A DNA stretch of 64,000 nucleotides from Acidobacteria bacterium bin61 (GTDB lineage Bacteria > Acidobacteriota > Vicinamibacteria > Marinacidobacterales > SMYC01): contig CAUZCL010000008.1 in the NCBI GenBank assembly GCA_963578475.1, positions 56,997-120,996 on the forward strand, in the 5' to 3' direction. The first letter of the stretch is position 1. Each line of letters begins with the position of its first letter. The position numbers were made by a program, and so were the translations under genes. The notes below the pieces were generated by a model. That model saw only the letters and a list, made by a program, of their open reading frames with translations, had not been told where the DNA came from and made no database searches. Below are positions 1 to 44,005 of this stretch, piece after piece.

Positions 1-606
1 GGCTTCGAAATCGGTCGTCGCGTTCTCGATAAAGGCTCGATGCGTGAGACCGGATTTGATGATCTCGCGGGCGACCGCGTTCGCGAGGGCGATATCGGTG
101 CCGACATCGAGACCCAACCAGAGATCGGCCCACTGCGCTGAGCTCGTCCGCCGTGGATCGACCGTATACAGCTTTGCGCCGTTATGAATACCCTTCAAGA
201 TATGGTGGAAGAAGATAGGGTGCGCGTCGCGGGCGTTCGAGCCCCACAGGATGATGACATCCGTTTCTTCGAGCTCACGGTACGAGCTCGTACCCCCGCC
301 CGCTCCGAAAACTTTCGCCAGACCGGCGACGCTGGGAGCGTGTCACGTACGGTTGCAGCTATCGATATTGTTACTGCCCATGACGACGCGCGCGAACTTC
401 TCGGCCGTGAAGTTCATCTCGTTGGTCGACTTGGAGCAGCTGAAAAGCCCGAAGGACGTTCCGCGGCGGTCTTTGAAGCCCGCGGCGGCGCGCTCGAGCG
501 CCTCCCCCCAGCTCGCGCGACGGAGAGACCCGTTCTCGCGAACCATTGGATAGGTCAAACGTTTGTAACTTTTTCGCATGCCTTGCCTCGCGGAAGAGTT
601 TATCAC
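1..606 (-). CDS. Formate-dehydrogenase-type molybdopterin oxidoreductase alpha subunit with selenocysteine read-through at TGA 343-345. Partial: runs off the left edge. The canonical N-terminal Fe-S domain is not present upstream.
   Basis: Minus ORF 343..606 (...FTAEKFARVVMGSNNIDSCNRT) stops at TGA 343-345. The same frame stays open to position 1 as U-HAPSVAGLAKVFGAGGGTSSYRELEETDVIILWGSNARDAHPIFFHH...LYTVDPRRT. This is the C-x-R-x-[C/U]-H-x-x-S-V-A-G-L active-site block of FdhF/FdhA-type enzymes. Upstream of GTG 604-606 (ATG 577-579) the frame closes near 705 without any Cys-cluster domain. Confidence 0.75.
301..345 (-). promoter_or_regulatory. Bacterial SECIS-like hairpin immediately 3' of the UGA
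   Basis: Minus-strand RNA: UGA CACGCUCCCAGCGUCGCCGGUCUGGCGAAAGUUUUCGGAGCG. The outer stem is CGCUCC/GGAGCG and the apical stem is CGCC/GGCG, closing a GGUCU loop. The GGU begins 21 nt after the UGA, which resembles the fdhF-type SECIS as I recall it. Confidence 0.6.
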
Positions 607-644
607 GTAGGATAGTCCATGCTGATTCGCCCGACACTCGCAGC

Positions 645-2267
645 GTGCGCGGCCTGCTCGGCGTACTCTCTTGCGCGCCGGAGGACCCTGAGCCTTTCGT
701 TCTGTTTATCGGCCTCGACGGAGCGAGCCTCGACATCGTGGACGACCTGCGCGCCGAGGGACGGCTTTCGACCTTCGACCGGCTGATCCGTACCGGCATC
801 TCAGGCCCGCTCCAGTCCTGGGCGTCGAAGCCGATCATGAGCGAGAACTTGCGCCGCGGCTTCTGGTCGCCGATCGTGTGGACCTCGATCGCAACGGGTA
901 AGATTCCCGAAAAGCACGGCGTGCGCGATTTCGTCTTGCCCATCCCCGGAACGTCCGTGACGTGGATGGGCGCCGACGAAGACCCTGCCAGCGCTACGAT
1001 GACGATCCCGGAGCTGCACGGACGGACACCTTTCACTCTCACGATGCGGATGCACTCTTTCGCCCGCGCCGGCGCTCAGGCGGTGCAGGTCCTTTGGAAC
1101 GGCGAGCACGTAGACACGGTCCGGATCGAGGACACGTGGCAGGAAATCGCGGTAGAGGTGACCTCAGCGCCGGTGCGGAACACGATCGAGCTCGTTTTCG
1201 CCCGGCAAGCGCGGGCGAATGATGGGCGCAAGCTAGCCGTGGAGCTTTCGTGGGTCTCTGTCACCGACGGCTCCGGTGAGGAGATCTTTCATCTCGACCC
1301 GGTACTCCAACGCGAACAGCTCGGCGCCGGTTTCTACCCGCCGCGGGGACAGCTCACCGAGGTCCAGAGCCTACATTGGCGCGCGAAACCGTTTTGGAGC
1401 CTACTCGGAGATGCCGGAGTGCCGGTCGGGATCCTCGGCTATTGGGGCACGTGGCCCGCCTATCCGGTGAACGGGTTCATCATCTCGTCGCGAATGGGGA
1501 TTCGCGAACAACGCGAGGGGAGCAGCCGTTTGAGCTGGCCGGAAGCGCTGGCCGAAGAGATTGCCCCCATGGCTCCCGACGCCATCGATCTCGCACCCAC
1601 GTTCGAGCGTGTCCACGTCTCGGAGTGCGACCCGCCGCTCATCGAACAGCAGTCCGTCTTGAAGAAGATACTGATCCAGGACGAGTACTACGTGCGCGTG
1701 GCTCGTAAGCTCCTCCCGAAGATGGACTCCGGGATGTTCTCGATCTATCTGCGGTCCATCGATGTCGCCGGGCACCCGACGCTTCACTGGCGCCACGGAC
1801 AGCCAATCCCGGAAGGATGCCCCGAATCGGTCCGCGACATCATGGACGAAACCTACATGCAGATCGATGACTGGCTCCAGGAAATCCTCGAAGCACTCCC
1901 GCGGCGTGCCACCGTCGTGATCGTTTCCGATCATGGGATGCAGCCTATCGAAGGCGGCGGCCATCACTCGCCTTTCGGCTTGTTCATCGCGCAAGGAGAA
2001 GGCCTGCGCCGCGGGGAGGTCTTCCACGGCTCGACCGTGCTCGACGTCGCGCCGACGATCCTTCACTTGCTCGGAGCGAGCGTGCCGCTCGACATGGACG
2101 GGAAGGTAATCGCACAAATCTTCGAAAGTAACTGGCTGGCACAATACGCGCCGCGCTACGCGGACATCGACACAACGCTCGACGTCAAGGATGGAGAGGA
2201 TGGGTTTGAGACCGACGTAAGCGAAGAGGCGCTCGAGCAGCTGCGCGTGCTCGGCTACATCGAATGA
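645..2267 (+). CDS. Alkaline-phosphatase-superfamily enzyme (type I phosphodiesterase / nucleotide pyrophosphatase family), secreted
   Basis: ORF 546..2267. The likely start is GTG 645, giving the signal-like VRGLLGVLSCAPE. Family-typical motifs are FIGLDGAS, WTSIATGKIPEKHGV, VIVSDHGM and VLDVAPTILHLLG. Confidence 0.75.
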   Translation: MRGLLGVLSCAPEDPEPFVLFIGLDGASLDIVDDLRAEGRLSTFDRLIRTGISGPLQSWASKPIMSENLRRGFWSPIVWTSIATGKIPEKHGVRDFVLPIPGTSVTWMGADEDPASATMTIPELHGRTPFTLTMRMHSFARAGAQAVQVLWNGEHVDTVRIEDTWQEIAVEVTSAPVRNTIELVFARQARANDGRKLAVELSWVSVTDGSGEEIFHLDPVLQREQLGAGFYPPRGQLTEVQSLHWRAKPFWSLLGDAGVPVGILGYWGTWPAYPVNGFIISSRMGIREQREGSSRLSWPEALAEEIAPMAPDAIDLAPTFERVHVSECDPPLIEQQSVLKKILIQDEYYVRVARKLLPKMDSGMFSIYLRSIDVAGHPTLHWRHGQPIPEGCPESVRDIMDETYMQIDDWLQEILEALPRRATVVIVSDHGMQPIEGGGHHSPFGLFIAQGEGLRRGEVFHGSTVLDVAPTILHLLGASVPLDMDGKVIAQIFESNWLAQYAPRYADIDTTLDVKDGEDGFETDVSEEALEQLRVLGYIE

Positions 2268-37274: not shown

Positions 37275-38491
37275 AACTGGATCGCAGAGAGTTTTTAAGC
37301 ACGGCCGCGGCTACTGTCGCGGCCGCGAATAGCGCGAGCAGCTTTGAATCGTCGGCAAGCGCCGCTCTTGATTTCGGCCTGCGCGCGGATTTTCCGGCGG
37401 CCGCGAAATCGAACTACCTCAACACACCCTATATCGGCCCGCCTCCGCGCGCGGTCGAACAGGCGGGTATTGCCTTTGTGCGCTCGAAGTCCGAAGACCC
37501 CATCCTGCTCGGAGCGATGCTCGAGAAAGCGAACGAGGTGCGCCGGAGCTTCTCGTCTCTTTTCGGGGCCAAGCCCGAGGAGGTCTCGTTTCTCTTCGCG
37601 ACGAGCGAAGGCGAGAACATCGTTGCGGAAGCGCTCGACTTGAAGCCGGGGGACAACGTCGTCATCGACGATCTGCACTACGAGACGACCTACGTTTTGT
37701 ACAAGACGCTGGAGAAGACCAAAGGTATAGAGGTGCGTGTCGTGAATGCCGTCGACGGACGGGCTGACCCGGCACATTTCGAGCCCTATGTTGATGACAA
37801 GACCCGCGTGGTCTCCGTTTCCTGGGTGTCGCATCAAAATGGCTTCCGCCACAATCTCCGGGGGCTCTCTGATCTCGCTCACGCACATGGCGCGTATCTC
37901 TATGCGGACGCGGTCCAAGCGCTCGGCATGTTCGAAACGAACTTCCACGACGAAGGCGTAGACTTCTTGACTTCCGGCACCTACAAGTGGCTTTTCGCGA
38001 GCTATGGCGTCGCACCTTTCTATATTCGCGAAGAGCATCTCGATTGGGTCGTTCCCGACCGTTTGGGCTCGCTGTCGATTCGCGACACTCTGCCAAACTA
38101 CGAGTTCCGTCTCTACGAAACCGCGCGCAAATACGAATATGCAACGCTCGCGTTCGGTCCGCTCTATCAGCTCGGCGCCTCACTCGACTATCTCGCGAAG
38201 GTCGGATTGGGAAAGATCGAGGCCCACACGGTGGACCTCGCGCACGATTTGCAAAAGGGACTCCTCGATCAGGGACTTCTCGTGCGTACGCCCCAAGGGA
38301 ACAGGTCGAGCATTGTGTCCTTCGAGCACGGGAGAGACCCGAAAGCTGTAGAGTCGCTGTTCGAAAAAGAGAACATCAAAGTGAGCTTTCGTGAGAACGG
38401 TCGGATGATCCGCGCCGGGGCAGCGCTCTTCAATAGCAAGTCCGACATCGACCACCTACTCGATACCGTCAAGAAAATCGCCTCTCTATGA
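37271..38491 (+). CDS. Class-V aminotransferase-fold PLP enzyme with twin-arginine signal
   Basis: ATG 37271 overlaps the GNAT stop (ATGA). MKLDRREFLSTAAATVAAA. Motifs: SWVSHQNGFRH, DAVQALG, SGTYKWL (PLP Lys). Confidence 0.8.
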   Translation: MKLDRREFLSTAAATVAAANSASSFESSASAALDFGLRADFPAAAKSNYLNTPYIGPPPRAVEQAGIAFVRSKSEDPILLGAMLEKANEVRRSFSSLFGAKPEEVSFLFATSEGENIVAEALDLKPGDNVVIDDLHYETTYVLYKTLEKTKGIEVRVVNAVDGRADPAHFEPYVDDKTRVVSVSWVSHQNGFRHNLRGLSDLAHAHGAYLYADAVQALGMFETNFHDEGVDFLTSGTYKWLFASYGVAPFYIREEHLDWVVPDRLGSLSIRDTLPNYEFRLYETARKYEYATLAFGPLYQLGASLDYLAKVGLGKIEAHTVDLAHDLQKGLLDQGLLVRTPQGNRSSIVSFEHGRDPKAVESLFEKENIKVSFRENGRMIRAGAALFNSKSDIDHLLDTVKKIASL

Positions 38492-39597
38492 AACGCTACG
38501 CCGCCTACGATCCTCCGGAATATCAGAACTGGCGTCCCGATCCCGCCGTCATGGAAGAGTTCCGGACGCGCGTGATGCAGGACCCGACCCGCCGGAGTGT
38601 CGTATCCGCACTGACGCCGCCGCAACACCTCCGGCTCTACAAGGGTCTCGTACGTAATCGACTCCACGACATCGCGCTCAAGCGATGGGTCCGTCAGGGT
38701 GTCATCTCGAAAGCCTGGCTCGGAACGGGGGAAGAGGCCACGACTATCGGTGCGGTCCATGCACTCCAAAAAGGCGACATGGTCGGTCCGATGATCCGAA
38801 ACGCCGGTGCGTGTCATGAAATGGGCATGTCGATTGCGGACATGCTGCGCGCATATCTGGGCACGGAAGACTCGCCCTCGCGAGGCCGTGATATTCACTT
38901 CGGTGACTTGGTGAACGGTGTCGTCGCGCCCATCAGCATGGTCGGCGCGCTCGTTCCGGTTTGCGCTGGCCTAGCTCTGTCGTTCAAGCTTCAGAAAAAA
39001 GAGAATATCGCGCTCACATGGGTGGGTGACGGCACCACCTGCACTACTGCATTTCACGAAGGGATGATGTGCGCGAAATCATTGTCGCTGCCCCTCGTCG
39101 TCTTCGTGCAGGACAATCAGATAGCCCTCGGAACGCCGCGCGAGAGCCATAGCGCGGCGCCCATGGGACGGGTGGCAACAATTTATGCGGCGACGAAATA
39201 CATTTGCAACGGCAACAACGTTCTCGACGTCTATGCGACGACCGCGCTCGCGGCGGAGCTCGCTCGTCTCGGCGAGGGTCCGATCGTAGTGACCGCCAAA
39301 ACCTTCCGCATGGGCGGCCACGCCACCCATGACGAGGGAGAGTCCCGGAAGATTCTCCGTGAAGAGGCTTTCGCTTACTGGGGCAAGCGGGACCCGATCG
39401 GCATGTATGAGACATTTCTTGCCGAGTCCGATCTCGAGCTCGCGACCGATCTCTCGAACCGCGAAGTCCTCGAGCAGGCGGAGCAAGAGGTTCACGAGGA
39501 GGTCGAGGAAGCGGCGCGGCAAGCTCTCGAAAGCTCGAAGCACTCGATCCCGAATCCCGCCGAGCAACAGCTCGGTGTTTTTGCTGGAGTTTCATGA
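38488..39597 (+). CDS. Thiamine-diphosphate-dependent 2-oxoacid dehydrogenase E1 alpha subunit (no E1 beta adjacent)
   Basis: ATGA overlap with the upstream gene. Motifs: GTGEEATTIGA, GRDIHFG, WVGDGTTCTTAFHEGMMCAKSLSLPLVVFVQDNQIALGTP (GDG...N TPP motif), RMGGHATHD. Confidence 0.8.
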   Translation: MKRYAAYDPPEYQNWRPDPAVMEEFRTRVMQDPTRRSVVSALTPPQHLRLYKGLVRNRLHDIALKRWVRQGVISKAWLGTGEEATTIGAVHALQKGDMVGPMIRNAGACHEMGMSIADMLRAYLGTEDSPSRGRDIHFGDLVNGVVAPISMVGALVPVCAGLALSFKLQKKENIALTWVGDGTTCTTAFHEGMMCAKSLSLPLVVFVQDNQIALGTPRESHSAAPMGRVATIYAATKYICNGNNVLDVYATTALAAELARLGEGPIVVTAKTFRMGGHATHDEGESRKILREEAFAYWGKRDPIGMYETFLAESDLELATDLSNREVLEQAEQEVHEEVEEAARQALESSKHSIPNPAEQQLGVFAGVS

Positions 39598-40457
39598 CCG
39601 AACAACCCACCAATGTGATCGACGTCACCGACGAGACTTTCGAATCGGACGTGCTGGAGCAATCGCACCATCTTCCCATCGTCGTCGATTTCTGGGCGGA
39701 GTGGTGTGGGCCCTGCCGCGTGCTCGGCCCGACACTCGAGAAGCTCGCTTACGAGGGAAAAGGGAAGTTCTTGCTCGCTAAAGTCGACACCGACAGCGCT
39801 CAGCGGGTGGCGCAGAGTTTCGGTATCCAGAGCATTCCAACGGTGATCGCTTTTCGCGACGGCAAACTTGCAGCCAAGTTCTCGGGCGCTCTTCCCGAAG
39901 ACGCCGTACGCGAGTTTCTCGAGCGCTTGTTGCCGTCACCCACAGACGAAATCGTGGCGGAAGCGGACAAGCTTCGTGCGTCAGCGCCCGAGCAGGCGGA
40001 GCTGCTCTATCTGCGCGCACTCGAAATAGACGACGGTCATGTCGGTGCCCGCATTGGCCTCGCAGAGATACTGGCCGGGCGCGGCGAGCGTGACGAGGCG
40101 CAGGCGATTGTGGGAAACCTCCTGCCAGCAGCCGATGGGGAGGTGGAGCGGATCGCTCAATTGCAGTCGGAACTAGCGCTCGGAGGCGTCATATCGGAGT
40201 CGAGCGAAGAGGAGCTTCGCGAACGGCTCGCGGCAAATCCACGGGACACGAGTGTTTTGATGGAGCTCGGCCAAGTGCTCGCGGCGAACCGCCGCTATCC
40301 GGAGGCACTCGATTCATTCCTTCAAGCGGCCGAGGGCGACCGCGCGCTCGCGAACGGTGAGGCCAAGAAGCGGATGGTCGAAGTTTTTCATGTCGTCGGT
40401 GTCCGAAGCGCACTGGCCGACGACTATCGCAAAAAGCTCAGACGCCTGCTTTATTAA
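39594..40457 (+). CDS. Thioredoxin-domain + TPR-like co-chaperone (YbbN/CnoX family)
   Basis: ATGA overlap with the E1 alpha gene. VVDFWAEWCGPCRVLGP, IQSIPTVIAF, and a helical-repeat C-terminal half. Confidence 0.8.
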   Translation: MTEQPTNVIDVTDETFESDVLEQSHHLPIVVDFWAEWCGPCRVLGPTLEKLAYEGKGKFLLAKVDTDSAQRVAQSFGIQSIPTVIAFRDGKLAAKFSGALPEDAVREFLERLLPSPTDEIVAEADKLRASAPEQAELLYLRALEIDDGHVGARIGLAEILAGRGERDEAQAIVGNLLPAADGEVERIAQLQSELALGGVISESSEEELRERLAANPRDTSVLMELGQVLAANRRYPEALDSFLQAAEGDRALANGEAKKRMVEVFHVVGVRSALADDYRKKLRRLLY

Positions 40458-40469
40458 GAAACCCTGCGG

Positions 40470-40964
40470 CTATAGCGCGCCGGTCCTGTCACTGCGCGGC
40501 AACGTGGCGCTCTCGTTTGCAATACCTCTTGCACTCCAGGCGACCGTGCGTTTCTTCAGCCTCGTGTCAATTTTCTTCTGCTGTTTCAGTACCTGAACCT
40601 GCGTGTCGGCCGAGAGGAACCGATGCGCAGTGTGAATGCCCTCGACCGTGACGGAGAGCTCGGCGGTGAAGGGCTCGTCGTCATCGAAATAGTTGCCTTC
40701 GACACGCACACGCACTTGCTCGGGCAAGAGGACCTTCCGTTCGGCGTAGTAGGTGAACTGGAACAAACGCTCCGCGGGCATCAGGGAGATCGGGCGGTCG
40801 TTCTCGTAGAGGATCCCGTCCGCGAGGTGCTCGCAGAGCTCGAAGTCGATCGGCATGTAGATACTTCGGTTGAGCAGTTTCCTCGATTTAGCCGCCAAAG
40901 GTGTGTTTACGACGGAGGCGAGCAGGAAGACCATCAAGTAGCTCTTTGTTCTGTTTGTTCTCAC
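40470..40964 (-). CDS. Hypothetical secreted protein
   Basis: Signal-like MRTNRTKSYLMVFLLASVVNTPLAA. Natural composition, in an AT-richer segment. No family recognised. Confidence 0.45.
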   Translation of the reverse strand: MRTNRTKSYLMVFLLASVVNTPLAAKSRKLLNRSIYMPIDFELCEHLADGILYENDRPISLMPAERLFQFTYYAERKVLLPEQVRVRVEGNYFDDDEPFTAELSVTVEGIHTAHRFLSADTQVQVLKQQKKIDTRLKKRTVAWSARGIANESATLPRSDRTGAL

Positions 40965-41106
40965 GGCGACTCTCCTTGGTTGCTATACTCCTGCCGCAAA
41001 GAACGTGCCAGAGGCAGGACATCGCTAACCAACAGATACAGCTAACCTTCCGCCCTTTCGGCTCTGTATCCCATCCCATCACAGCTAGCGCGTTGTAGCG
41101 CTTGGC

Positions 41107-41135
41107 TTGACGGTCGTTCGCGTTTCGGTCACAAT
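41107..41135 (+). promoter_or_regulatory. Candidate sigma-70-type promoter of the Phe leader / pheA-DAHPS unit
   Basis: TTGACG (41107-41112), 17-nt spacer, CACAAT (41130-41135). The leader ORF starts 16 nt downstream. Confidence 0.4.
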
Positions 41136-41150
41136 GCGCGTGTTGGAGTG

Positions 41151-41219
41151 ATGCAAGTGGCCGCCAAAACGATTCGACCTACCTTCTGCGGCACCTTCTT
41201 CTTCTTTTTTGGCGCCTAG
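41151..41219 (+). CDS. pheL-like leader peptide (22 aa) with five consecutive Phe codons
   Basis: ATG CAA GTG GCC GCC AAA ACG ATT CGA CCT ACC TTC TGC GGC ACC TTC TTC TTC TTT TTT GGC GCC TAG encodes [26 protein letters not shown] lies at 41145-41148. The ORF ends 80 nt before the chorismate mutase / prephenate dehydratase fusion gene. Confidence 0.6.
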
Positions 41220-41299
41220 CGCGCCGACGATTACACCACCCACGCCCCCCCTTTTTCGCCGACAGATCCGTATGGCTCCTATCCTCGAGAGGACAAGAA

Positions 41300-43366
41300 A
41301 TGACTAGAGACAAACGCGACATCCAGCCGGTCCGAGACGCCATCGACAAGATCGATCGAGAGTTGCTCCGATTGCTCGCTGAGCGTCGCAAACGCAGTAT
41401 CGAAGCGGCGAAGGTCAAAGAAGTCGAGGCCGATTGGTTCCGGGACAAGACGCGGGAGGAAGAGCTCATCGCCGACCGTGTCGAGGTGGGTGCGAGTCAC
41501 GGGCTCGACTCCCACTACGTGACGAGCGTCTTTCATGACGTTCTAGAAGACTCGACCCGTATCCAAGAAGAGTATTACCAGGACCGTGCCAATGAAGGGC
41601 CCGGGTCACTGCGTGTCGCGTTCCAAGGTATCGAAGGTGCGTATAGCCATCTCGCAGCACAAGAATATTTCTCGCGGAAGGGCGCCGCCGCGTCTTATCT
41701 CGGTTACGCTCAGTTCAAAGACGTGGTCGATACCGTCGAGAAGGGCCACGCGGATATTGCAATCCTGCCGATCGAGAACACCACGTCGGGCGGCATCACC
41801 GACGTTTACGATCTTTTGCTCCACGCGCAGCTATCGATCGTGGGAGAAGTGAAGCTCAAGGTGGAACACTGCCTTCTGGCGCTTCCCGACGCAAAACTTT
41901 CTGATATCCACACCATTTATTGTCATCCCCAAACCGTGCTGCAGTGCAGCGATTTTCTCACGCGGATGCCCCAGTGCAAGATCGAGTACTTCAGCGACAC
42001 GGCGCTCTCGGGGAAGAAGATCCACGAGGACGGTCTCGTTTCCCAGGCGGCAATCGCCAGTGAAGAGGCGGCGCGGATCTTCGGGCTCAGTGTCATCGAG
42101 CGCAGCATCGCGAATCAACGTGAGAACTACACGCGCTTTCTCGTGAGCGCACGCAAAGCCGTCCACGTGGATCCTCGAATCCCGTGCAAGACATCGATCA
42201 TGATGATGACGGGGAATGAGCCGGGCTCGCTCCTAGACGCGCTTTCAGTGTTCCGGGAGCATGGCATCAACCTCACCAAGCTCGAGTCTCGGCCGATCCT
42301 CGAGAACCCATGGGAGGAGATGTTCTATCTCGACTTTCAAGGCAATCTGGCCGACGAGAAGATTCAGAATGGACTCGACGAAGTTACGAGACGCGCTCGT
42401 TTCATCAAGGTGCTCGGTTGCTATCCGTCGAAGGACTTACCCGCGCCCGCCAATCAAGCGCTGCTTTCCGGCCAAAACGATGTGAGCGAGGAAACCGTCG
42501 TCGCGCCGATAGCGGCACCGCCGCCGGACGTGCGGAAGGCGAGTGGCTACCGACTGGCGAGCCGCGAGTACAAAGCCGACGACACCGTCATCGAAGTCAA
42601 AGGCATCAGGCTAGGGGGCGACAGCTTGGTAATGATCGCGGGTCCCTGCGCGGTCGAAACGCGCGAGCAGATCATGACTTGTGCGCGCGAGGTCAAAGAA
42701 CAGGGAGGACACATTTTGCGGGGCGGATGTTTCAAACCGCGGACCTCTCCTTACAGCTTTCAGGGTCTCGGCTACGAGGGGCTCGAGATGCTCGTCGAGG
42801 CGGGACAGAAATACGGGCTGCCGGTCGTCACGGAAGTTTTGTCACCGGACGATGTTGCCCGAGTCGCAGAGACGGCGGACATCCTCCAGATTGGCGCTCG
42901 AAACATGCAAAACTTCACGCTGCTATCGGAAGTCGGTAGAGTGCGGCGCCCTGTTATGTTGAAGCGCGGCATGAGCAGCTCGCTCGATGAGCTCCTACAA
43001 GCCGCGGAATACATTCTCGCGGGAGGCAACCAGCAAGTGTTTCTGTGCGAGCGCGGCATCCGCACGTTCGAGACCGCTACGCGGAACACCCTCGACTTGA
43101 GCGCCGTCCCAGTCCTTCGGAGCCGCACTCATTTGCCGATCATCGTCGACCCGTCTCATGCTGCCGGCAAGCGCGAGCTCGTCGTTCCCCTTGCGCTCGC
43201 GAGCAAGACCGTCGGCGCGCACGGCGTCATGGTCGAGATCCACCCGGAGCCCGAGAAAGCGCTGAGCGACGGTCCCCAAGCGCTACTCTTTCCTCAGTTC
43301 AGCGACCTGATGGACCGCCTCTACAATGGCCGGCATAAGACACCGCAGGGATCGCCACGCCAATAA
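41300..43366 (+). CDS. pheA: Fusion protein: chorismate mutase + prephenate dehydratase + ACT domain + type I-beta DAHP (DAH7P) synthase
   Basis: One uninterrupted 688-aa ORF. CM: [23 protein letters not shown]: [13 protein letters not shown]...IENTTSGGI...NYTRFLV. ACT: [35 protein letters not shown]. Linker, then DAHPS: [13 protein letters not shown]...[19 protein letters not shown]...IGARNMQNF...[13 protein letters not shown]...[17 protein letters not shown]. Confidence 0.9.
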
Positions 43367-43384
43367 GAAACGGATGGCTCGACG

Positions 43385-43798
43385 CTAAGTCTTGCGGCTC
43401 AACCCGGCAGGGAAGTGGTTCAATTGCAGCTTCGCCGCCGCTTTGTCGGTCATGTCCACGATCGCCGCCGCGTTGACCCCGACTGCGATCACGATGCACT
43501 CGCTGATCTCCTCCTTGGTCGCGCCTTCCTTGAGCGCCTTCTTGATATGCCCCTCGATGCAACCATCGCATTTCGCGACCAACGAGCATCCCAACGCGAT
43601 GAGCTCCTGGCTCTTTGCATCCAAGACCTTCTTGTCAGTGTAGTAGGTCTCTTTGTAGAACTGCGCGTAGATGTTCTTCAAGCGCGGCTCGATCATCGAG
43701 TAAGAGGCCGGGCCCTTCTTTTCGCCAGGGTCGTAGTCAATCCCCGGAATGCTGTCCTTCTTGTTAGCGACCTCCGAATCGTTCGCCATCTGATTCAA
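43385..43798 (-). CDS. Carboxymuconolactone decarboxylase / AhpD-like family protein
   Basis: ELIALGCSLVAKCDGCIEGHIKKALKEGATKEEISECI (CxxC core of the CMD/AhpD fold). Confidence 0.75.
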   Translation of the reverse strand: MNQMANDSEVANKKDSIPGIDYDPGEKKGPASYSMIEPRLKNIYAQFYKETYYTDKKVLDAKSQELIALGCSLVAKCDGCIEGHIKKALKEGATKEEISECIVIAVGVNAAAIVDMTDKAAAKLQLNHFPAGLSRKT

Positions 43799-44005
43799 CC
43801 TCCTCTTACAGAAAACCCAAGCTCCCAGGGCGTCGTCATGATACCACGCGGGAAGATTGCACTAATGCATACGACGAAAGCGACGCAAAGTTCCTGAATG
43901 CAGCAGTTGCGCCGAACCTCGCCGGACGAAAAGATTGACAGGAATGCCAATTCTATTCGACATCTTGACGTTTATTGGACTGTTCGAGACCGAGCCGCAC
44001 CACCG

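Follow-up and report, generated by a model that had tools for sequence, protein, structure and literature searches.

Leader-peptide attenuation is a textbook mechanism; to our knowledge, nearly all of the biosynthetic attenuators that have been worked out belong to Proteobacteria, Firmicutes or Actinobacteria and have an intrinsic terminator as their last part. In the Escherichia coli pheL-pheA system (Rfam Phe_leader), a short open reading frame (ORF) with a 3' run of Phe codons sits in the 5' leader of a chorismate mutase/prephenate dehydratase gene, and a hairpin covers the end of the ORF. All of these elements recur in the 64,000-nucleotide stretch of Acidobacteria bacterium bin61 analysed here (contig CAUZCL010000008.1; the whole stretch is referred to as “the window”), where a Phe-rich leader precedes a fusion gene of the aromatic pathway. 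A preliminary description of this DNA had called the arrangement pheL-like attenuation; what stands of this is a conserved, translated leader with codons for the pathway end product, whereas there is no homology to pheL, no match to an Rfam leader, and neither an antiterminator/terminator pair nor a U-tract. The window gene further differs from pheA in adding a 3-deoxy-D-arabino-heptulosonate 7-phosphate (DAHP) synthase, and the host phyla are distant. We consider the element to be, with high probability, a Phe-sensing leader-peptide attenuator; a Rho-dependent output stage, with Rho as an effector that we infer, has about an even chance of being correct.

Leaders that regulate in the absence of an intrinsic terminator are known. 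In tnaC-tnaAB and speFL-speF an upstream ORF is followed by a Rho utilization (rut) site and no terminator, and a ribosome that stays on the last codons of the upstream ORF shields the rut site, resulting in read-through (PMC12360218). The window is similar in having a C>G unstructured tract about 10 nt past the leader stop and no intrinsic terminator, but in tnaC and speFL an arrest peptide responds to a free ligand and the systems are catabolic or inducible, whereas in the window uncharged tRNA at hungry codons would serve as the signal, the gene is biosynthetic, and the part played by Rho is putative. The mycobacterial poly-Cys small ORF Ms5788A is also terminator-less; its codons stand at the 3' end of the small ORF, some 97 nt separate it from its gene, and the codon tract pairs with the downstream Shine-Dalgarno (SD) sequence (bioRxiv 10.1101/834739). 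Like Ms5788A, the window has a terminator-less, probably amino-acid-sensing leader with 3'-terminal regulatory codons; nearly the whole Ms5788A leader forms one very stable duplex, whereas the spacer in the window is predicted to be unstructured and its pairing of the Phe run with the SD is weak and not conserved. Seliverstov et al. (2005) predicted Cys leaders that lack a terminator in Mycobacterium, Propionibacterium and Bifidobacterium and proposed the involvement of Rho, and found no conserved RNA regulatory structures upstream of phenylalanine/tyrosine operons in Actinobacteria (PMC1262725). Those Cys leaders share with the window leader conserved peptides, codon runs near the stop, the lack of a conserved terminator hairpin and pyrimidine-rich downstream motifs, and differ from it in amino acid, genes and phyla. 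In architecture, the window leader is nearest to these terminator-less actinobacterial leaders and to the mycobacterial poly-Cys translational attenuators. A functional parallel, going by its description, is aroR-aroF of Corynebacterium glutamicum, where a Phe-Tyr-Phe leader precedes a DAHP synthase gene and stalling under Phe limitation raises expression (Neshat et al. 2014, as summarized in PMC11802643): relatives of the window leader share the mixture of Phe and Tyr (for example, RYFYFGA), but aroR is described as controlling a stand-alone aroF operon and the window leader precedes a fusion gene. The literature searched gave no account of leader peptides in Acidobacteria, nor of a gene fusing chorismate mutase, prephenate dehydratase and DAHP synthase.

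The leader mini-ORF occupies positions 41151-41219 of the forward strand (22 codons, from ATG 41151 to TAG 41217-41219), as defined by the sequence and by conserved orthologues, and reads ATG CAA GTG GCC GCC AAA ACG ATT CGA CCT ACC TTC TGC GGC ACC TTC TTC TTC TTT TTT GGC GCC TAG. The regulatory run, TTC TTC TTC TTT TTT (F16-F20), lies at 41196-41210 (+), and with an extra Phe codon at 41184-41186 six of the 22 codons are for Phe, five of the six in a row, just as the preliminary description had it. Five successive TTY codons occur a single time in the 64 kb (both strands) and in none of 100 dinucleotide shuffles; because the run is unique in the window and absent from the shuffles, the leader ORF and its Phe run are far beyond chance. 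A scan of the intergenic mini-ORFs of the window returned no other with a biosynthetic-type codon run. The ORF has its own SD, GGAG (41145-41148, +), as had been noted, but this is placed only 2 nt from the ATG and, at the usual spacing of 8 nt, from an in-frame GTG at 41157; the true start may thus be GTG 41157, giving a peptide of 20 residues instead of 22. The same SD-AUG-NNN-GUG arrangement is found in the relative L084. The leader stop codon is 80 nt from the ATG of the fusion gene (41300). This distance, and the chorismate mutase and prephenate dehydratase domains that follow it, agree with the preliminary description, but the gene is tri-functional, also carrying DAHP_synth_1, and is not a plain pheA.

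The leader is preceded by a sigma-70-like promoter, TTGACG-17-CACAAT (41107-41135, +; -35 TTGACG at 41107-41112 and -10 CACAAT at 41130-41135). It had been proposed from the letters of the window alone, and is the sole promoter-like site in 40400-41900 (shuffle mean 0.2). The motif is also conserved: 17 of 18 relatives have TTGAC at a distance of 184-229 nt ahead of the fusion ATG, and so does L135, and in the upstream alignment (A2) the -35 TTGA and the -10 A.A(A)T, the latter 17 nt past the former, are invariant or near-invariant. The conserved promoter would place the transcription start site (TSS) at approximately 41142, about 8 nt past the promoter. In L135, on a contig of 2.6 Mb, a tyrA-like prephenate dehydrogenase-ACT gene (215-1243, minus strand) is divergent from the leader promoter, and this intergenic region may serve genes of the Tyr branch and the Phe branch alike.

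Relatives of the locus were gathered by exact-protein look-up, a metagenome scan and a genome scan. A profile search of genome contigs with the full-length fusion alignment gave mostly stand-alone DAHP synthases and no relative above 62%; the close relatives came from the exact-protein look-up and the metagenome scan, and the taxon labels used here are those on the records of the metagenome-assembled genomes. The preliminary description had left the conservation of the F-rich mini-ORF to be checked in relatives, and it is kept: 17 distinct sequences have a common layout ahead of the fusion gene, comprising promoter, SD, aromatic-tailed mini-ORF, a hairpin with the stop codon in its loop, and a spacer. 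The holders of this layout include Acidimicrobiia (L001, L002, L015), Acidobacteriota (L004), Dadabacteria (L134) and marine lineages, the clade of the window among them. Their mini-ORFs are 19-28 codons long, are open and in frame with a TAG or TAA in 17/17 sequences, and have an aromatic-rich tail, (F/Y)..(Y/F)FG(A/V), or in one case with the ending YFG, immediately before the stop. The aromatic codons differ in number and kind, mixing Phe and Tyr, but are always at the 3' end of the ORF, and TTC and TTT swap among relatives. Examples are the leader peptides MRVVSVETRPTFRAAFFFYFGA (L084), ..AVRYFYFGA (L088), VNANRTPVASRFYFYFGA (L126), ..AFRFFFYFGA (L130), MRANAKSSLYFYFTAFYFGV (L134, Dadabacteria), ..RRFFGFVYFGA (L004, Acidobacteriota), MHAAWPESTTDRFFTARGLFGA (L001, Acidimicrobiia), ..FAVFFRGYFG (L002, Acidimicrobiia), ..GAFAFAGYFGA (L015, Acidimicrobiia) and ..TATFFRGYFGV (L135).

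Codon changes within the leader are biased to synonymous ones: six synonymous and no non-synonymous changes against L081, whose fusion protein is 90% identical; four and one, respectively, against L090; and five and one against L089. The RPTF motif upstream of the Phe run (41175-41186 in the window) is kept in L084 with a synonymous CGA>CGT change, even though the two fusion proteins are merely 79% identical. The synonymous bias and the retention of RPTF show, at the level of the sequence, that the ORF is translated and that purifying selection acts on it. Besides the Phe codons, the N-terminal portion of the leader, or the stretch of RNA that codes for RPTF, may also matter. No aromatic leader was found before the fusion genes of Ignavibacteria/Melioribacter, Holophagales, Chthoniobacterales, Planctomycetes, some Actinomycetota and a group of about 48% identity (L091-L122), and the element is therefore not universal for the fusion gene.

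A hairpin around the stop codon, P1 (41209-41227, +), is formed by UUGGCGC (41209-41215), a loop CUAGC (41216-41220) and GCGCCGA (41221-41227), with a predicted energy of -10.8 kcal/mol. It is present in 17/17 sequences. In all 17 the loop holds the stop-codon UA, and the 5' arm includes or adjoins the last aromatic codon, whose distance from P1 is fixed; the last Phe codon always stands three codons ahead of the stop. The core GGCGC/GCGCC is near-invariant, with CGGC/GCCG instead in L002 and L135, and the outer pairs covary (U-A, C-G and U.G at position 6, and the same three at position 9). The preliminary description had paired the stop region (41207-41216) with the 5' end of the leader ORF (41159-41169). 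These segments are complementary in the window, but this is not conserved: in every relative it is the sequence 3' of the stop (41221-41227) that pairs with 41209-41215, and since P1 uses this segment in all relatives, the earlier pairing was rejected. The leader was folded, as had also been suggested: the minimum free energy (MFE) of 41136-41310 is no better than that of shuffles (z = +0.8), and RNAalifold on the whole alignment returned no conserved helix apart from P1. A direct repeat, CGCCGAC, occurs at 41220-41229 and 41257-41263, the first copy being the 3' arm of P1 and the second following it by 37 nt. Comparable repeats occur in L130 (GCGCCAAAAU and UCGCCAAAGU) and in L004, where GCGCCGA recurs at the SD. 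Pairing of the second CGCCGAC copy with the 5' arm of P1 is possible in principle, but this copy is not kept in all lineages. Another copy of the 5' arm itself, which might act downstream as a 2:3-type partner, was looked for too, and none is conserved.

A palindrome built around a stop codon might have a function that involves no translated sensor at all. TTGGCGCC-TAG-CGCGCCGA could be an operator to which a repressor binds in the DNA, or the target of an RNA-binding protein, with the Phe codons incidental, and the near-invariant GGCGC/GCGCC core fits sequence-specific recognition as well as it fits pairing. Such a site would not account for an ORF that is in frame with its stop in 17/17 sequences while its length varies between 19 and 28 codons, for aromatic codons that vary in number and kind and are always 3'-terminal, or for substitutions biased to synonymous ones. 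The G.U pairs in the stem favour an RNA role over a DNA palindrome, and together with the compensatory stem changes they fit RNA; we regard an operator-type explanation as extremely improbable.

P1 has the position of the classic 1:2 pause or protector hairpin that overlaps the end of a leader ORF, with the stop in its loop, and a run of five T follows at 41252-41256. Could the element be an ordinary trp/pheL-type attenuator whose intrinsic terminator has been overlooked, either an atypical one with no U-tract or P1 itself? A scan of the leader region for a hairpin followed by a T-run found no such terminator, in keeping with the preliminary description, which had rightly turned to Rho-dependent termination or occlusion of the ribosome-binding site (RBS) as alternatives. 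The T-run is preceded by CACGCCCCCCC, for which there is no G-rich partner; it is missing in most relatives and reads GATTT in a strain that is 95-99% identical. P1 is the sole helix that RNAalifold shows as conserved; what follows it is A-rich or C-rich sequence and not U, and the effect on P1 of a ribosome that is stalled or closely coupled would probably have the wrong regulatory sign. Both P1 and the T-run were rejected as terminators, no terminator-like site being found and the T-run not being conserved, and we consider an overlooked terminator very improbable. Searches against Rfam gave no match at E<=10 in 39000-44000, none at the gathering score in the whole window, and none at E<=1 in nine related loci.

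Aromatic leaders with ordinary terminators do exist in and around these groups. In L042 (Terriglobia; 2715-2785) a stand-alone DAHP synthase has the aromatic leader MFGTDASSFWYFTYRYWGFAPSR, ending at its stop codon and followed by an intrinsic terminator, GCCCACUC..GAGUGGGC-UUUUU; in L044 (Limnocylindrales; 2663-2698) another stand-alone DAHP synthase has the leader MSHYFYFRCPA, likewise ending at its stop codon, and then the terminator GCAGAGG..CCUCUGC-UUUUUU. Four Syntrophales/Smithella loci (L027, L046, L057, L080) carry a different leader, rich in W, F and Y, 300-400 nt upstream of the fusion (for example, ..FWFSFYYYYFLPVCPSLRRM before the stop), with a conserved C-terminal VCPSLRR; in L080 it is followed by a hairpin-plus-T-run terminator (2740-2772). 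This leader looks like a classic attenuator sensing all three aromatic amino acids. Given the ordinary terminators of L042, L044 and L080, the terminator-less design is specific to the leader family described here, and not a phylum-wide trait.

In place of a terminator, the window has a C-rich, G-poor spacer (41220-41285, +; 66 nt with C30 and G11), which is predicted to be unstructured and which we propose as a rut-like site. It comprises a block that is conserved in the clade, ATTACACCACCCACGC (41231-41246), and runs of seven C (C7, 41245-41251) and five T (T5, 41252-41256), all on the forward strand. Its excess of C over G is matched by 0.08% of the windows of the same length on both strands of the 64 kb. 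The C/G ratio is 2.4-5.2 in 11 of the 13 lineages of A2, and L135 is likewise C-rich (C31 and G8 in 63 nt). Despite spacer sequences that cannot be aligned between phyla, the distance from stop to ATG is 69-81 nt in 13/17. Pairing of the spacer with the SD of the main gene, and with the 5' region, is weaker than in its own dinucleotide shuffles (mean z = +0.46 in both cases), which suggests that the spacer is selected to stay single-stranded; its predicted unpaired probability is 0.5-0.8. As an anti-SD of the main gene, the spacer was rejected for doing no better than shuffles. Variants in seawater metagenomes have a C7 run shorter by one (X7, X12) or GATTT for TTTTT (X12), so that the C-run and T-run are polymorphic in near-identical strains.

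Leader transcripts were folded in the free state, and again with 28 nt kept unpaired to represent a ribosome, which was placed at several of the aromatic codons or on the stop. The constrained folds showed no consistent antiterminator/terminator switch. A three-part switch, in which the 5' untranslated region or the leader SD pairs with the aromatic run or the spacer, was rejected as a general mechanism: the signal for pairing between the 5' region and the aromatic run is weak (Stouffer p ~0.002) and absent in the window, and pairing between the 5' region and the spacer is worse than in shuffles.

The same folds bear on translational control. Here the Phe run (41196-41210) would pair with the SD tract of the fusion gene (41287-41299) once the ribosome has left, a stalled ribosome would free the SD, and any effect on transcription would be secondary polarity. 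There is experimental precedent for this in the mycobacterial poly-Cys leaders (bioRxiv 10.1101/834739), and in the window UUCUUCUUCUUUU pairs with GAGAGGACAAGAA at 12 of 13 positions. Two relatives, L081 and L089, have a perfect 13-bp helix in their MFE structures, in which the unpaired probability of the SD rises from 0.32-0.36 when free to 0.5-0.74 with a ribosome at the end of the leader; where the window has its C.C mismatch, L081 has a U-A pair, both bases having changed. In L004 a perfect GC-rich complement of 10 bp joins GCCUCGGCGC, just before the Phe codons, to the SD region GCGCCGAGGC. For the window itself the duplex is weak (-9.0 kcal/mol with the C.C mismatch, z = +0.43) and is not part of the MFE structure, and the accessibility of the fusion-gene SD is unchanged by stalling (unpaired probability 0.66 free, 0.62-0.69 with the stall constraints). 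Across 13 lineages the pairing of the aromatic run with the SD does not exceed that with shuffled SDs (mean z = 0.03) or with the SDs of other lineages (p = 0.24), an insertion in L090 weakens the pairing further, and the conserved P1 and the spacer of about 80 nt are left unexplained. RBS occlusion is therefore plausible in some lineages, but is predicted to be weak in the window and does not appear to be a shared principle; it is the main rival to Rho, and as the explanation of the element we judge it unlikely.

A second rival invokes frameshifting at hungry codons: under Phe starvation the P-site tRNA-Phe would slip +1 on U UUU UUG (41205-41211), and the ribosome would pass by the leader stop, cross the spacer, shield it from Rho, melt structure and stop at the UAG at 41305-41307, which overlaps the start of the fusion gene (AUGACUAG), delivering ribosomes there. 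The +1 frame of the window runs open from the U-run up to the UAG that ends at 41307; the -1 frame, too, is open and continuous with the fusion ORF (upstream to ~41196), with no start codon between. Of 26 cases, 18 have an alternative frame that passes through the spacer without a stop, where shuffles would give 13.7 (p ~0.02), and stops in the alternative frames often come 4-8 nt into the main gene; high-level frameshifting is on record for the Phe run of E. coli pheL (PMC3082878). The open frames are, though, largely a product of C-rich composition, as one-third of random 80-nt segments of the genome have both frames open. The slippery U6 is limited to the window clade and L128, most relatives ending in the non-slippery UAU UUY GGC; three relatives have stops in both alternative frames, and the shifted-frame peptide is not conserved. 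Frameshifting as the mechanism is improbable. As a rarer extension of Rho-dependent attenuation, +1 slippage on U6 under starvation would carry ribosomes across the spacer to the stop overlapping the main start.

In the reading that we put forward, with a confidence that is evenly divided, the element is an attenuator in which the ribosome senses the charging of tRNA-Phe (in relatives, of both tRNA-Phe and tRNA-Tyr), with Rho as its output and the spacer as a rut-like site. The RNA on which Rho loads is C-rich, G-poor and unstructured, and about as long as this spacer. After initiation at the conserved promoter, a ribosome would translate the leader of 20-22 codons. With ample Phe-tRNA it would reach the stop and depart, P1 would refold and the spacer would be left bare, so that Rho could load there and end transcription at the fusion gene or shortly within it. 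With little Phe-tRNA, the ribosome, together with any queue behind it, would be parked on the Phe codons with P1 melted, abutting the spacer; the parked ribosome would, we infer, mask or sterically hinder the loading of Rho, as in tnaC/speFL, and RNA polymerase would read into the fusion gene. P1 itself may act as a pause for RNA polymerase or as a marker of ribosome position.

Several observations weigh against Rho-dependent attenuation of this kind. By geometry, a ribosome with the last Phe codon in its A site reaches approximately to the stop, and the C-rich tract begins about 10 nt beyond; with the footprint ending there, the block on Rho must be steric or act through the pyrimidine tract of the leader itself. 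The 3' half of the leader is pyrimidine-rich and, from the sequence, would be masked by a stalled ribosome. The C>G skew is weak in L130, L128 and L134, which have longer spacers, so that a rut-like composition is not universal. The poverty in G could also come from avoiding sequences that would compete to pair with the Phe run, or from avoiding stop or start codons, and the role of P1 is not uniquely accounted for by Rho. A metatranscriptome search returned a single contig of 166 nt, inside the body of the fusion gene, and yielded neither a TSS nor 3' ends, the other matching runs being DNA contigs.

The regulated gene (41300-43366, +) encodes a protein of 688 residues with chorismate mutase, prephenate dehydratase, ACT and type I-beta DAHP synthase domains (Pfam CM_2, PDT, ACT and DAHP_synth_1, with NCBIfam matches), and from these assignments it is predicted to join the first common step of the pathway (DAHP synthase) to the Phe branch (chorismate mutase, prephenate dehydratase). 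Its SD, GAGAGGA (41287-41293, +), is identified from the sequence inside the purine tract 41287-41299. There are >7000 homologues of the fusion protein, many of them full-length fusions, and the nearest named ones belong to Vicinamibacteria (71% identity). Full-length fusions are seen in Acidobacteriota, Acidimicrobiia, Dadabacteria, Planctomycetes, Ignavibacteria, Syntrophales and other groups; one relative, P0103 (1036 aa), has an additional Aminotran_4 domain. The window sequence is matched in seawater metagenomes; these matches, the Vicinamibacteria homologues and a weak ADOP-permease match close by make a marine member of the Acidobacteriota its probable source.

Gene order around the locus is shared between the window (38488-43366) and L081-L088, L126, L127 and L130: an E1 dehydrogenase component, a thioredoxin-tetratricopeptide repeat protein and a small ORF on the minus strand are followed by the leader and fusion gene. 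In the window the small ORF (40470-40964, 164 aa) has no family match. The gene after the fusion is often carboxymuconolactone-decarboxylase-like (CMD), and a weak match to an ADOP permease was recorded near the locus.

The element joins a familiar mode of sensing to a different and strongly conserved output stage, consisting of a stop-in-loop hairpin and a length-constrained, C-rich, unstructured spacer. It does so ahead of a three-enzyme gene for entry into the aromatic pathway and exit to Phe, in poorly studied and mostly uncultured phyla. Rho was proposed as the effector for terminator-less leaders in 2005, and the literature searched gave no demonstration of it. We suggest, tentatively and at somewhat less than an even chance, that these loci represent a cross-phylum family of biosynthetic attenuators using Rho, in which hungry Phe/Tyr codons would keep a ribosome beside a rut-like spacer, some 80 nt long, that follows a stop-in-loop hairpin, and the first conserved Rho-dependent attenuator of aromatic synthesis to sense tRNA charging. 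The motif is absent from Rfam, and its inclusion would improve the annotation of metagenomes. If Rho is the effector, the leader would provide a compact and widespread model for how the position of a ribosome controls Rho at amino-acid operons.

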